DNA of 57,903 nt from an uncultured Candidatus Saccharibacteria bacterium (GTDB lineage Bacteria > Patescibacteriota > Doudnabacteria > UBA920): contig CAZQMO010000006.1 in the NCBI GenBank assembly GCA_964594755.1, forward strand, positions 1-57,903, read 5' to 3'. The notes beneath the pieces were generated by a model. The model was not told where the DNA came from, did not search any database, and worked only from the letters and a program-made list of their open reading frames with translations. Position numbers and translations under genes: made by a program. This document shows, one piece after another, positions 1,861 through 45,005 of this stretch. Each line of letters starts with the position of its first letter. The stretch's first letter is position 1.

Positions 1861-1884
1861 CACTCCTTTAATTAATATATAGAG

Positions 1885-1950
1885 TGTCATCCCCGCGAAG
1901 GCGGGAATCTCCTAAAATATAGGAGATCCTGAATCAAGTTCAGGATGACA
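1885..1950. repeat. 66-bp palindromic (REP/RPE-like) element, TGTCATCC...GGATGACA ends
   Basis: Terminal inverted repeats enclose the hairpins CCCGC-GAAG-GCGGG, ATCTCCTA/TAGGAGAT and CCTGAA/TTCAGG; relatives at 22496, 56017 and 57645. Confidence 0.9.
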
Positions 1951-1963
1951 ACACACAAGACAT

Positions 1964-2407: not shown

Positions 2408-2442
2408 AGATGCCATCTTTGCCTGTGAGTAAGATGGCATCT
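2408..2442. promoter_or_regulatory. Perfect 12-bp stem-loop between rplO and secY
   Basis: AGATGCCATCTT (2408-2419) and AAGATGGCATCT (2431-2442), 11-nt loop, no U-tract; TATAAT follows at 2447-2452. Confidence 0.7.
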
Positions 2443-2458
2443 ATTGTATAATACCAAT

Positions 2459-3736
2459 ATGAATAAACTCAGTTTAATTTGGAAAACTAAGGATCTGCGC
2501 TGGAAGATCACAATGGTCTTGATTCTTTTGTTAATGACACGCGTTTTAGCACATATTCCGATTCCAGGGGTCAGTGTTGAAGGTTTGCGTACTTTCTTTG
2601 AAGGCAATCAATTCTTGAACTTGTTAAATATCTTTTCTGGTGGTGGTTTGAGCAACTTCTCCATTGCGTTGCTTGGTGTTGGCCCTTACATTACTGCTTC
2701 AATTATCATGCAATTGTTGGCTATGATTGTGCCGTCTTTGCAAGAATTACAAAAGGAAAGCGGTGAAGCCGGTCGTACTAAAATTAACCAGTATACTCGA
2801 TTTTTAACAATTCCGTTAGCTATTTTGTCTGGGTTCGGAACGATTCGGTTATTGCAGAGCCAAGGTGGCGCTGAATTACTCGGAGTGTTCACTCCATTCC
2901 AATGGTTTTTAACTTTGTTAGCGGTAACAGCTGGAACTATGCTCGTGATGTGGATTGGTGAAATTATTTCTGAATACGGTATCGGTAATGGGATTTCTTT
3001 AGTAATTTTTGCAGGTATCGTTGCTCAGCTACCAACTAGTGTTGGTTCTCTGATTGAATTATATGACCCAACTCAGTTACCGACCATTCTTGGTTTCGCA
3101 GCTGTGGCGTTGTTAGTTATTGCTGGGGTAGTTTATGTGACTGAGGCTCAGCGTAATATTCCAGTTTCGTATGCAAAACGCATGCAAGGGGAGCGTCAGG
3201 TTGGTGGGGTTAGCTCACATCTACCCCTGCGTTTAAACCAGGCTGGTGTAATCCCAATTATTTTTGCCATTTCTTTGTTATTGTTCCCAGCTATCATCGC
3301 GCAGTTCTTTGTGAACGCAAAGACTCCATTAGTGGCAGAATGGGCTCAAAAGGCCATTGATTTTACTAATAATCAAGGACTTTGGTATGGGGTTGCTTAT
3401 TTCGTGTTAGTTGTCTTGTTTACCTATTTTTACACTAACATTGTGGTAAATCCAGATGATGTCTCTCAGAACATGCAGCGCAGTGGTGGATTCATCCAAG
3501 GTATTCGTCCAGGTCGCCAAACCGCTGACTACTTGTATAAAGTGTTGAATCGCATTACTTTACCTGGTTCATTGTTTTTAGGTACCATCGCTATCTTACC
3601 GTTTTTGATGCAAACCTGGACTGGAACTCAGGCTTTAACATTTGGCGGAACTGGTTTGTTGATTGTAGTTTCAGTGGTAATTGAGTCTATTAAGCAAGTA
3701 GAAGCTCAATTAACAATGCATGACTATCAGAAGTAA
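2459..3736 (+). CDS. secY: Preprotein translocase subunit SecY
   Basis: SIALLGVGPYITASIIMQLL, GIGNGISLVIFAGI, GGFIQGIRPG, FGGTGLLIVV; ATG 2459 preferred over the upstream TTG. Confidence 0.98.
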   Translation: MNKLSLIWKTKDLRWKITMVLILLLMTRVLAHIPIPGVSVEGLRTFFEGNQFLNLLNIFSGGGLSNFSIALLGVGPYITASIIMQLLAMIVPSLQELQKESGEAGRTKINQYTRFLTIPLAILSGFGTIRLLQSQGGAELLGVFTPFQWFLTLLAVTAGTMLVMWIGEIISEYGIGNGISLVIFAGIVAQLPTSVGSLIELYDPTQLPTILGFAAVALLVIAGVVYVTEAQRNIPVSYAKRMQGERQVGGVSSHLPLRLNQAGVIPIIFAISLLLFPAIIAQFFVNAKTPLVAEWAQKAIDFTNNQGLWYGVAYFVLVVLFTYFYTNIVVNPDDVSQNMQRSGGFIQGIRPGRQTADYLYKVLNRITLPGSLFLGTIAILPFLMQTWTGTQALTFGGTGLLIVVSVVIESIKQVEAQLTMHDYQK

Positions 3737-12325: not shown

Positions 12326-12345
12326 TCCCTTGACTTTTTTCACTT

Positions 12346-12371
12346 AAAACCGCTCAATTAAGAGCGGTTTT
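12346..12371 (+). terminator. Intrinsic terminator
   Basis: AAAACCGCTC-AATTAA-GAGCGGTTTT. Confidence 0.8.
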
Positions 12372-12412
12372 GTTATGGTATAATTAAGTAGAGATGGAAT
12401 TATTTAATATAT

Positions 12413-12518
12413 AGCCGAAGGATCGGGCTTTGCCCGTACTGAGGCAAAATTGGAAAGGGGAGGCAGGCCGCTTGCGGCCGTTGGAAGGGGAAAACCCTTT
12501 CTGGGTTTTCCCCTTCCA
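12413..12518 (+). ncRNA. Candidate structured 5'-leader element of dnaX (homologous to 44415-44565)
   Basis: Three hairpins between an extended -10 (TGG-TATAAT 12376-12384) and ATG 12530; aligns with the mraZ leader with compensatory pairs. Confidence 0.65.
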
Positions 12519-12529
12519 AGGTTATCTTT

Positions 12530-14077
12530 ATGGCAGTTTATTATCAGACTTACAGACCCCAAAATTTTAGTGAAGTTGTTGGTCAGGAATCTTTAGTAAA
12601 AGCACTACTTTCGGCTTCAAATTTGGGCAAAATTGGGCATGCTTATTTATTTTGTGGTAGCCGCGGGGTGGGGAAAACTACCTTAGCCAGAATTCTAGCT
12701 AAGGCCGCTAATTGTCCTAATTCAAAGAAAGGTGATCCTTGCGGAACTTGCGACGTATGCACAGCTATAGCTCGCGGCGCTTTTTTAGATGTTGTAGAGA
12801 TCGATGCCGCTTCTCATACTGGTGTAGACAATATTCGAGAGCTAATTGAGCGCATTAATTTTGGTCCAGCCCAAGGTAAAACCAAAGTCTTCATTATCGA
12901 TGAAGTTCACATGTTGTCTAAGGCTGCCTTTAATGCCTTACTAAAAACTTTAGAAGAACCGCCAGCACATGCATTATTCATTTTAGCCACTACCGATATT
13001 GATAAAGTTCCTGATACAATTGTCTCCCGAACGCAACGGTTTGATTTTCGTAAGATTACCCCTCCTCAAATCCTAGAAACGTTAAAACGAATTGTAAAAA
13101 AAGAAAAATTGAAGCTTGATGACACGGCTTTGCAAATCATTGTTGATAATAGCGAGGGCGGTCTGCGTGATGCGTTGTCTCAGCTATCCATGATTGCTGT
13201 GTTAGACAAAGATTCTAGTGAAGCTGATATTCATTTGTTACTTGGGACAACTTCCCGGGCCACAGTTTTGGAACTGTTATCCTTAGTGGCTTCTGGTAAC
13301 ACCTCAGCGATGCCTGAATTTTTTGCTAAGCAAACGGAACTGAATTTTGACCCCAATAGTTTTACTAGAAAAGTTTTACAGGTTCTGCAAGAATTGCTCG
13401 AAGATGATTTGGCTAAAACTGGCGGTGATCATGAACTGGCAGGAAAGTTTTTATTACCTCAATTATTACATGTAATGCGTCTTTATTTACGTGCTTACAA
13501 AGAAATTGAACGAGCTTTGAGTCCTGAACTTCCTTTGTTACTTGCTAGCATTGAGGCTGCGTTATATATGTCTGGTGGACGAGGTACAGCAGTTGGGAGT
13601 CAACCAGTTATCAATACTAGTACACAAAAATCACCACCACCAATCAATCAAGTGGTGGTTCAGGATTCTCCAGAAGATGTTGAGGTACAGGCTGTTATAC
13701 CTGTTCAAGTTCATACCGTGGTGGATGGTAATACTCCGGTTTTGGATCAAGCCCAAGTTTCTGTTTGGTGGCCAAATTTAGTAAATGAGATGCGTAAAGT
13801 TAATGGTCCTTTGGCTACGTTGTTACGGAATTGCCCAATTGCTTCCGTAGAAGGCAATAATGTCGTGGTCGCAGTAAAGTACCTTTTCCATAAAGAACAG
13901 CTGGAAAGCACCAAAATCCGTTCATTCATCAATGAACACTTAAGTAATCAAGCTGGTGGGCCAGTAATTTTCTCGGCAATTATCGATAAGCGTTTAACAG
14001 TGAGTGAACAAATTAATGACACTGCCACTGCTGTCTCAGATGCGTTAAGGATTTTTGGCGGCGAAGTCATAGAGTAG
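12530..14077 (+). CDS. dnaX: DNA polymerase III subunit gamma/tau
   Basis: YRPQNFSEVVGQ, GSRGVGKTT, Cys4 zinc module, IIDEVHML, SRTQRF. Confidence 0.97.
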   Translation: MAVYYQTYRPQNFSEVVGQESLVKALLSASNLGKIGHAYLFCGSRGVGKTTLARILAKAANCPNSKKGDPCGTCDVCTAIARGAFLDVVEIDAASHTGVDNIRELIERINFGPAQGKTKVFIIDEVHMLSKAAFNALLKTLEEPPAHALFILATTDIDKVPDTIVSRTQRFDFRKITPPQILETLKRIVKKEKLKLDDTALQIIVDNSEGGLRDALSQLSMIAVLDKDSSEADIHLLLGTTSRATVLELLSLVASGNTSAMPEFFAKQTELNFDPNSFTRKVLQVLQELLEDDLAKTGGDHELAGKFLLPQLLHVMRLYLRAYKEIERALSPELPLLLASIEAALYMSGGRGTAVGSQPVINTSTQKSPPPINQVVVQDSPEDVEVQAVIPVQVHTVVDGNTPVLDQAQVSVWWPNLVNEMRKVNGPLATLLRNCPIASVEGNNVVVAVKYLFHKEQLESTKIRSFINEHLSNQAGGPVIFSAIIDKRLTVSEQINDTATAVSDALRIFGGEVIE

Positions 14078-44291: not shown

Positions 44292-44374
44292 TTGAAAAAT
44301 GGGTGAAAGTGGGGTATACTGACTTCAAGTGGAATGAAGTGGGGGAAAGTGGGGATAAGTGGGTGGATAAGTGG
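44292..44374 (+). promoter_or_regulatory. mraZ promoter overlapped by a MraZ-box array
   Basis: TTGAAA(44292)-17-TATACT(44315); AAGTGG at 44307, 44327, 44337, 44347, 44357, 44369. Confidence 0.85.
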
Positions 44375-44414
44375 ACAACTCAAACCATACAGATTTCTAG
44401 AAACTAAAAGTAAC

Positions 44415-44565
44415 AGCCGCGAAGACATCTGGCTTTGCCAGGGTCTGAGCAACCAAGGAAAGGTGAGGCAGACCGCGAAGCGGTCATTGGAAGGGATCCG
44501 GGTTAAGTCCAAACTAGGTTTGGACTGCTAACCGGTGAAAACCCTTCCCGGGTTTTTCCCTCCAA
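44415..44565 (+). ncRNA. Candidate structured 5'-leader element of mraZ (homologous to 12413-12518)
   Basis: Same three hairpins and linkers plus an extra ~40-nt hairpin; ends 8 nt before ATG 44574. Confidence 0.65.
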
Positions 44566-44573
44566 ACTGCATT

Positions 44574-45005
44574 ATGTTTATTGGTGAATTTCAAGCTTCA
44601 ATTGATGACAAGGCCCGCGTTGCCATTCCAGCAAAGTTCCGCAGTTCTTTGAAATCAAAGGTCGTCGTAACCAGAGGGTTAGATAACTCCTTGGTTCTGT
44701 ACACATTAGACGAGTGGAAAAAGTTAGCCGAGAAGGTGGCTAGTCTCCCAATTTCTACTGCCAACACGCGTGCTTTTTCTCGTCTGATGCTTGCAGGAGC
44801 AATGGATTGCGATATCGACAAACAAGGTCGAATTGTTCTCCCAAGTTACCTCAAGAGTTTTGCTAAGATTTCCAAAAAGCTCGTGTTCGCCGGTTTGTAT
44901 AACCGTATCGAAATTTGGAGCGATGAAGCTTGGCAGAAGTATAAAACACAAACAGAAAAACAAAGTAATCAAATTGCCGAACAATTGGGTGATCTAGGAG
45001 TATAA
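44574..45005 (+). CDS. mraZ: Transcriptional regulator MraZ
   Basis: MFIGEF..SIDDKARVAIP, DKQGRIVLP, RIEIW; precedes rsmH. Confidence 0.96.
   Translation: MFIGEFQASIDDKARVAIPAKFRSSLKSKVVVTRGLDNSLVLYTLDEWKKLAEKVASLPISTANTRAFSRLMLAGAMDCDIDKQGRIVLPSYLKSFAKISKKLVFAGLYNRIEIWSDEAWQKYKTQTEKQSNQIAEQLGDLGV

Follow-up and report, generated by a model that had tools for sequence, protein, structure and literature searches.

Introduction

Why does one and the same structured sequence stand directly before both dnaX and mraZ in a 57,903-nt contig of an uncultured Candidatus Saccharibacteria bacterium (CAZQMO010000006.1 of assembly GCA_964594755.1; the whole stretch, read on the forward strand, is referred to as the window), and does it link the expression of the two genes? 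A preliminary description of this DNA had aligned the two stretches, interpreted them as a cis-regulatory leader and suggested that this leader could couple the replisome (dnaX) to cell division (mraZ-ftsI). We compared both copies with related loci and find that they belong to an undescribed, clade-restricted multicopy family of structured intergenic elements, about 105-200 nt in length and built from three hairpins. The retained copies lie overwhelmingly in the sense orientation, directly before the starts of essential, highly expressed genes, and within genomes the family undergoes gain, loss and homogenisation among its copies. On the reading that we favour, it would serve as a generic expression module and not as a dnaX-mraZ coupling device.

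To our knowledge, almost nothing is known about gene expression signals in the Patescibacteria (candidate phyla radiation, CPR). What is new here is that a Saccharibacteria clade places one elaborate structured module of about 105 nt directly before the start codons of essential genes, in contrast to most other genes of the same genome, which have short leaders without a Shine-Dalgarno (SD) sequence. For annotation, the element accounts for unusually long GC-rich 'intergenic' stretches in otherwise compact operons, and its recognition guards against over-reading the two window copies as a regulatory link between dnaX and mraZ.

Results and discussion

Two homologous copies in the window

In pairwise alignment, positions 12414-12519 (copy 1) and 44419-44565 (copy 2) proved homologous and alignable end to end, in agreement with the first description to within a few bases. 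The match is far above chance: an 18-base core pattern occurs twice in the window and not once in 100 shuffles, the folding z-scores are -4.6 for copy 1 and -4.9 for copy 2, and a covariance model recovers the two copies with (rough) E-values of 4e-26 and 4e-23, respectively. Both lie in the same sense orientation in the 5' leaders of their genes, as had been noted. The gene after copy 1 is dnaX (DNA_pol3_delta2, DNAX lid and gamma3 domains in Pfam), and copy 2 is followed by mraZ, then rsmH and ftsI (Pfam).

Each copy consists of three helices, P1, P2 and P3, with a purine tract GGAAAGG(G/U)GAGGCAG between P1 and P2. The first hairpin reads CGGGC-TTT-GCCCG in copy 1 and CTGGC-TTT-GCCAG in copy 2 (G-C to U-A), and in both copies it is extended by more pairs and a tandem G.A/A.G loop. 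The second reads GGCCGC/GCGGCC and GACCGC/GCGGTC (G-C to A-U), and the third is common to both (TTGGAAGGG...AAAACCC/GGGTTTT...CCAA, also written UUGGAAGGGGAAAACCC/GGGUUUUCCCCU(U)CCAA).

Copy 1 begins on the plus strand with P1 at 12414-12445 (GCCGA-AGGA-U-CGGGC UUU GCCCG-UACU-GAGGC in the minimum-free-energy fold, with the tandem G.A/A.G internal loop). It continues with the junction and purine tract R1 at 12446-12465 (GGAAAGGGGAGG at 12452-12463), recognised by its near-invariance in the family and by the mirror test described below, and with P2 at 12466-12479 (GGCCG-CUUG-CGGCC), assigned from the P2 hairpin of the family. It ends with P3 at 12481-12519, in the minimum-free-energy fold a 17-bp homopurine/homopyrimidine hairpin UUGGAAGGGGAAAACCC-UUUCU-GGGUUUUCCCCUUCCAA. 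A 10-nt spacer without SD (12520-12529) leads to the dnaX ATG (spacer and start codon 12520-12532; gene 12530-14077). Copy 2, also on the plus strand, comprises P1 at 44419-44450 (folded as GC-GA-AGAC-AU-CUGGC UUU GCCAG-G-GUCU-GA-GC), the junction and R1 at 44451-44470 (GGAAAGGUGAGG at 44457-44468, found by the core pattern), P2 at 44471-44485 (GACCGC-GAA-GCGGUC, with a GNA triloop) and P3 at 44487-44565. The fold of this last helix includes a 41-nt hairpin that copy 1 lacks, inserted into the 5' arm at 44497-44537 (module P3a, CCGG-GUUAA-GUCCAAA...UUUGGAC-UGCUAA-CCGG). Its 8-nt spacer, again without SD (44566-44573), is followed by the mraZ ATG (44566-44576 with the start codon; gene 44574-45005). 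The first description had given spacers of 11 nt for dnaX and 8 nt for mraZ.

The covariance-model search of the 58-kb window found no full copy beyond these two. A weak match at 2324-2443, just before secY (14 bits, E = 0.017), overlaps the 3' end of rplO and is probably due to chance; it sits where two relatives hold a full element ahead of secY.

A clade-restricted family with covarying stems

Related loci of 8-20 kb each (numbered with the prefix L) were fetched from metagenome-assembled genomes (MAGs) or metagenome contigs. Pattern and covariance-model searches yielded more than 40 further copies, only in close relatives, the carriers being MAGs labelled Saccharibacteria, "Doudnabacteria" or Patescibacteria. 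A first exact-pattern scan over one genome per species gave 23 true copies in about 12 MAGs, with several copies per genome, and a second exact pattern yielded additional ones; the covariance model recovered 31 full-length copies among the fetched loci. Scanning metagenomes with a P3-only pattern gave 22 loci, each with a purine tract upstream; two scans of viral contigs returned no copy. At least eight copies are present in MAG CAZQZS and at least six in CAZBOT, whose MraZ and SecY are 100% and 96% identical to those of the window organism. The "Doudnabacteria" labels do not indicate a wide distribution, since the MraZ and SecY proteins of these MAGs are 80-93% identical to those of the window. 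A broad spread across CPR phyla was therefore rejected, and the element was not found in more distant CPR ribosomal-protein clusters.

The statement that the sequence fits no known riboswitch or ribozyme family was borne out. A search of the whole window against Rfam 15 at gathering thresholds gave a single tRNA, and loci L003-L018 and L193-L207 gave no match. With both copies at E <= 10, only sub-threshold chance matches of microRNA and small-RNA models to the P3 hairpin appeared. Nor did a search of the literature on CPR and Saccharibacteria RNA motifs, SD usage and repeats, and with the literal sequences, turn up a description of the element.

In the model-based alignment of the family, 89.8% of the cells are paired, compared with 78% after shuffling and 32-58% with slid partners. 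The compensatory changes noticed between the two window copies are genuine features of a conserved structured element. P1 shows changes on both sides in 12 of its 13 pairs, and in L014 the tandem G.A/A.G is replaced by U-A/A-U; the P1 type of copy 2 recurs in the orthologous mraZ copies L032 and L034. P2 is a hairpin in all 30 parsed copies despite at least 12 different sequences of 13-26 nt. Some of these hairpins are plain Watson-Crick and others contain a tandem G.A loop; most end in a GNA triloop, and the three divergent L127 copies have no P2. P3, by contrast, is nearly constant in sequence, with few compensated changes (UUGG/CCAA to UCGG/CCGA in three copies, and G-C to A-U), and the purine tract is fully or almost fully invariant throughout the family, also in the copies that the P3-only pattern recovered. 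The P3a module of copy 2 recurs in at least nine copies in other genomes, in the conserved form GGUUAAG-stem-CUGCUAACC. This hairpin module, with the asymmetric internal loop GUUAA/UGCUAA, stands at the same point of P3 in L004, L008, L010, L023, L029, L111 and L113, and L023 has a second one in the P3 loop.

Several other readings of this pattern were examined and set aside. A coding function or leader peptide is excluded by length changes in P2 and module inserts that are not multiples of three; no reading frame is kept, and the substitutions in the stems are compensatory. A GGAGG-CCUCC pairing proposed by RNAalifold fails as the main fold, because copies with CCUUCC or CCUUC restore a perfect P3 while breaking the GGAGG pairing, and the foot of P3 covaries. 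Pairings of the linker with the spacer or start codon, seen in single-sequence folds, are not conserved between orthologues. A riboswitch expression platform is also disfavoured, as neither the consensus nor the single folds contain a conserved pairing with the spacer or AUG and the predicted pairings vary by copy. As for a DNA palindrome serving as operator for a dimeric protein, the UUGG/CCAA and UCGG/CCGA variants share one genome, and the 41-nt modules break the symmetry. The G-quadruplex potential of canonical copies is limited to two-tier tracts with a zero-length loop.

Three helices joined by conserved junctions might also be expected of a self-cleaving ribozyme, and P3 of copy 1, which was flagged as terminator-like and is followed by a T-rich spacer, might suggest an intrinsic terminator or attenuator. 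Either is hardly credible. No ribozyme family matches even at E <= 10, and the core motifs CUGANGA and GAAA are absent, which also disposes of reading CUGAG as hammerhead-like. The U-tract lacks conservation, copy 2 is not flagged, and termination 8 nt before the starts of essential genes is implausible.

Copies abut the start codons of many genes

In at least 33 sense copies the distance to the following ATG is 5-13 nt (mode 8), and about three quarters of all copies are both in sense and adjacent to a start codon. Adjacency is not a by-product of compact spacers: 60-430 nt of unoccupied intergenic DNA lies upstream of at least 16 of 26 sense copies, which abut the ATG all the same. At least 19 different genes are preceded by the element, namely dnaX, mraZ, nusA (in at least four genomes), nusG, nrdR, frr, secY, rplB, rplD, rplJ, rplN, rplO, rplP, rpsB, rpsL and genes for TerC-like, MBOAT, methyltransferase and PrgI-like proteins (Pfam). 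Most are growth genes; occupancy per gene is patchy among close relatives, and unrelated genes are also included. This breadth, together with six to eight or more copies per genome, the absence of the element from 75 of 80 mraZ loci, the inverted copies inside operons and the homogenisation within genomes, speaks against the proposed coupling of dnaX to mraZ.

A broader regulatory role could still be considered, in which the leader RNA binds a small molecule or a global RNA-binding protein and coordinates growth genes (ribosome, Nus factors, replication, division, secretion). The highly conserved junction nucleotides between variable, covarying stems fit such a role, as do the predominance of growth and housekeeping genes and the recurrence of the same genes across genomes and metagenomes. 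P1 and half of the P2 helices contain tandem G.A motifs, which often serve as protein-binding sites. We nevertheless consider a regulon quite unlikely: no conserved alternative pairing masks the start region, the sequence of P3 is conserved, which is atypical of an aptamer stem, P2 is dispensable and large modules are inserted freely. The carrier genes moreover differ between genomes and are patchily occupied among close relatives, inverted copies exist, and MBOAT, TerC and PrgI-like genes belong to the downstream set.

An AT-rich box stands before P1 in nearly all copies. A+T reaches 80-95% at positions -4 to -19 before P1 (37 copies), often with a -10-like box. The empty secY site of the window reads TATAAT-ACCAAT-ATG, and the filled site (L028, MAG DAOLDG) reads TATAAT-TAAAAAAGACT-[element]-GGTATTATCT-ATG; a repeated unit in CAYHVH also contains TATAAT. 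Both window copies had been placed downstream of a promoter. This stands for copy 2, where a sigma-70-like TTGAAA-17-TATACT lies about 95 nt upstream. For copy 1 a strict sigma-70 scan found no promoter, though a TGGTATAAT box is visible at 12376-12384 within an AT-rich, -10-like region read from the sequence (12376-12413, plus strand; TTTAATATATAG at 12403-12414). The dnaX leader is probably its own transcription unit, because a terminator-like hairpin at 12343-12370 follows the preceding GtrA-like gene. This T-run hairpin (AAAACCGCTC-AATTAA-GAGCGGTTTT) lies 3' of that gene and resembles its terminator.

The purine tract is a perfect SD sequence (GGAGG, also GAAAGG), and the spacers of 30 copies contain neither an SD nor a U-tract. 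Among the window genes, AGGAG(G) at normal spacing precedes 8-12 of 46, the remainder having A/T-rich leaders. Any SD is absent from 34 of the 46, and several window genes have -10-like boxes 5-9 nt before the start codon; at secY (window 2438-2461) a perfect TATAAT ends 6 nt before the ATG, as expected of a leaderless mRNA.

A minority of copies depart from this layout. Two with a decayed purine tract (L203 and L027:2625-2743) have no adjacent start codon, about ten have no adjacent open reading frame (ORF), and four are inverted inside operons (rplN/rplX, rpsJ/rplC, rpsH/rplF and rpsR/efp), with P3 3-6 nt after the upstream stop codon in each and the purine tract kept.

Turnover among close relatives

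The mraZ leader contains the element at 5 of 80 related loci, and the alignment of these loci shows it in some relatives as an additional block ahead of the ATG. In the ribosomal-protein operons the occupied junctions differ between genomes. P2 types are common to copies of the same genome, some copies are near-identical, and three CAYHVH copies are nearly identical across the TATAAT-containing unit. The preliminary description held that many copies in random orientation and after convergent genes would point to a MITE (miniature inverted-repeat transposable element) or a repetitive extragenic palindrome (REP) rather than to a regulator. The copies are indeed many and some are inverted, but their orientation and position are far from random, so that a role in mRNA remains likely. 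The ends of the element (5' ...ATAG-CCGAG and 3' ...CCUCCAA) form no terminal inverted repeats, and no target duplications were seen at filled versus empty secY, mraZ and rplO sites or around the near-identical CAYHVH copies; a MITE was rejected on both grounds. Ends of the IS200/IS605 type were rejected as well, P1 and P3 being unrelated in sequence and the flanks offering no fixed target.

Small co-transcribed repeats such as pneumococcal BOX and RUP, the Neisseria Correia, enterobacterial ERIC and mycobacterial MIRU elements, and also the so-called mobile promoters, are among the closest parallels. BOX/RUP, Correia, ERIC and MIRU are likewise multicopy, 100-200 nt long and modular with optional parts (P2 and P3a in our element), occupy 5' leader or intercistronic sites in a strain-variable manner and in some cases include promoter-like boxes. 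The present family differs from them in its much lower copy number, its lack of terminal inverted repeats and target duplications, its strict sense orientation next to start codons and its conserved internal SD-like tract.

A putative discontinuous ribosome-binding site

Taken together, we tentatively favour, at slightly less than an even chance, a propagating promoter-proximal leader cassette that would act in mRNA, its SD-like tract recruiting the 30S subunit, P2 and P3 setting the spacing and the 5' end being protected. The element would be transcribed as a 5' leader, often from its own promoter-like box, so that P1 would form at, or close to, the transcript's 5' end. The purine tract, being exposed, could then pair with the anti-SD of 16S rRNA, which is implied because other genes use SD sequences. 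P2 and P3, if stacked base to base, would bring the tract to an effective distance of about 10 nt (about 2 + 8) from the AUG. The result would be a discontinuous ribosome-binding site, and the terminal hairpin P1 together with the bound 30S subunit may shield the mRNA from 5' decay. Essential genes put up with a GC-rich hairpin of 17 bp only 8 nt ahead of the AUG, which argues that initiation is provided for by the element.

In phage T4 genes 38 and 25, a stable hairpin brings a far-upstream SD to working distance from the start codon, forming a split ribosome-binding site. The layout GGAGG-CA-[P2][P3]-N8-AUG of the element is similar, although it involves two intervening helices and 60-150 nt between SD and AUG, is multicopy and has a function proposed from sequence. 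In Gram-positive bacteria, the cryIIIA STAB-SD and the aprE leader are 5' stabilisers in which a distant SD-like GAAAGGAGG-type sequence and a 5'-proximal hairpin block 5'-dependent decay. Our element has in common with them the distant SD-like GAAAGGAGG-type sequence and a (putative) 5'-proximal hairpin. Unlike it, STAB-SD and aprE are single-locus leaders that lack a homopurine hairpin and a fixed spacing to the AUG. If ribosome recruitment or mRNA stabilisation is correct, the element would amount to a naturally occurring, portable cassette for expression, of use to the genetics now emerging for such organisms, and to an example of a repeat that rewires translation signals within short evolutionary times.

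Several observations weigh against the leader cassette. The stems do not single out the RNA strand, because G.U pairs (13) are only in slight excess over A.C (7). Such genes do not depend on an SD, since relatives that lack the element translate mraZ from short, A-rich leaders without one. The conserved mraZ promoter 95 nt upstream means that the element does not always stand at the transcript 5' end. Since the inverted copies retain the purine tract and about ten copies have no adjacent ORF, the tract must be kept for a reason beyond or besides ribosome binding. Exact-pattern scans favour canonical copies, the covariance-model E-values are rough and MAG labels are unreliable. Finally, the transcription start, the 30S binding and the effect on translation or stability are all inferred.

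A mirror repeat between the purine tract and P3

A second property of the purine tract bears on these points. Read in reverse, R1 equals the purine arm of P3 over 8-13 nt, with 10 layers in canonical copies when a bulged A is skipped, an 11-mer in L127:7899-7997 and a 13-mer in a GC-rich metagenome group. Compared with shuffled linkers, the mirror relation is significant in six of seven lineages (p <= 0.02), the direct-repeat relation in three of seven only, and the canonical copy alone gives p = 0.08 in the mirror test. In L121, a change of tract position G6 to U accompanies a G-C to A-U change in the layer predicted by the mirror register (G.G-C to U.A-U). Uncompensated single changes in R1 or P3 occur in L007, L197, L206, L210 and copy 2 of the window (U at 44464).

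In a class I intrastrand triplex the blocks follow in the order third strand-purine-pyrimidine (RH-R-Y; Holder et al. 2015, PMC4666352). All three blocks are present in the element: a homopurine strand, the pyrimidine strand that pairs with it in Watson-Crick fashion, and a third strand that mirrors the purine strand. The connector between R1 and P3, which includes P2, measures 20-33 nt in canonical copies and in both window copies, well over the connecting loops of 1-6 nt in ITxF, and shortens to 3-4 nt only in L127:449-542 and the GC-rich metagenome group. In the GC-rich contigs L193, L195, L196, L199, L204 and L207, a hairpin CCAGGGGAAGGGGAAAACCC...GGGUUUUCCCCUUCCCCUGG directly follows its own mirror image GGAAAGGGGAAGGGG, which is the classical class I layout. 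These hairpins have no Rfam match, and the one in L195 adjoins recA/recX. Tract and arm co-vary between L204 and L207.

Such an arrangement could belong to a single-stranded-DNA repeat of the REP or PIT (BoxC) kind with no RNA role, in which the hairpins and a class I triplex of R1 on P3 would form on the lagging-strand template or during recombination. The repeat would spread or be converted between sites and destabilise loci, and the leader position would merely be where insertion is tolerated. We regard this explanation as unlikely but deserving of real weight. The mirror relation in six of seven lineages and the L121 change in the mirror register favour it, as do the retention of the tract in inverted copies, the patchy occupancy and the other small elements that hit the same spacers. 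Its P2 loops are mostly GNA triloops of the GCGAAGC type, which are exceptionally stable as DNA. The RH-R-Y order is that of class I, BoxC/TMECO repeats are likewise intergenic and multicopy, and purine-motif triplexes are said not to form in RNA (PMC4666352). Conversely, TMECO shows no strand or distance bias (PMC4666352), whereas here at least 33 sense copies stand against 4 antisense ones, and P3 keeps a fixed distance to the ATG also where free DNA lies upstream. An insertion 8 nt before the ATG of an essential gene should be purged unless the transcript initiates well. The copy number is low, terminal inverted repeats and target duplications are missing, and no transposase turned up in the 8-20-kb loci, whose proteins had no dedicated screen.

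The comparison with BoxC/PIT/TMECO of Enterobacteria and Cyanobacteria (Hoyne/Maher 2000; PMC4666352) is instructive. These repeats are tied to rearranged or unstable loci and their function is unknown (PMC4666352). Like the element, they are intergenic, multicopy and highly conserved, consist of three consecutive homopurine/homopyrimidine blocks with a mirror relation, vary strongly in occupancy among close relatives and have no link to known mobile-element genes. TMECO differs: it belongs to class II (Y-R-RH), has loops of 3-6 nt in a total length of about 37 nt and is free of strand bias or a preferred ORF distance. The element has P1 in addition and, in most cases, a P2 hairpin within the connector; it is of mixed G/A composition instead of G-rich, is at least 85% sense, ends 5-13 nt before start codons and has a third strand that is a perfect SD. 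A triplex, if real, whether in RNA or in single-stranded DNA, would add to the poorly understood BoxC/PIT class a case with clear positional logic and make function testable.

The same third strand could fold in the transcript, overlapping with the leader cassette favoured above. R1 would lie antiparallel in the major groove of P3 (G.G-C, A.A-U and U.A-U), giving a compact block that halts 5'-3' exonucleases and protects the downstream cistron, and melting or Mg2+ would free the SD-like tract. We give this triple-helix stabiliser little credence, and hardly more to the specific proposal that the leader RNA adopts an R.R-Y triplex of about 10 antiparallel layers (R1 on P3), which would gate the SD-like tract and/or block 5' exonucleases. 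The mirror-repeat statistics, the triple covariation in L121 and the classic fold-back geometry of the P2-less copies (connector of 3-4 nt) point towards an RNA triplex. A three-strand constraint would also account for the near-constancy of P3 and the tract beside the free, compensated drift of P1 and P2. On the other side stand the uncompensated changes listed above, the fact that low-complexity G/A tracts raise chance matches, with p = 0.08 for the canonical copy, and a contradictory literature on purine-motif triplexes with RNA strands, as judged in a review (PMC7583470; compare PMC4666352). If correct, it would mean that bacterial mRNA can contain a natural R.R-Y triplex made wholly of RNA, here before essential genes of an ultra-small episymbiont.

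Neighbouring features and other small elements

Upstream of copy 2 and outside the element, the mraZ promoter TTGAAA-17-TATACT and about seven AGTGG(G) direct repeats occupy 44292-44377 (plus strand). These repeats, AGTGG(G/A) in their variants, follow the promoter and resemble a MraZ operator array; promoter and MraZ-box-like repeats are conserved in relatives with and without the element in the alignment of mraZ loci.

The clade seems to host several families of small intergenic elements. The rpsE-rplO spacer, in most bacteria the usual place of rpmD (L30), contains the element studied here in CAZQZS and a different small structured insert in the window and in CAZBOT. This insert (window 1878-1958; about 3100-3190 in L112) is a four-way junction closed by GUCAUC/GAUGAC (z = -5.6), and the CAZBOT version has diverged. 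Upstream of mraZ in relatives (L033 1250-1360, L034 1160-1330), other short repeats of the form GTTATCCATCC...GGATTATCC are found, in tandem in L034.

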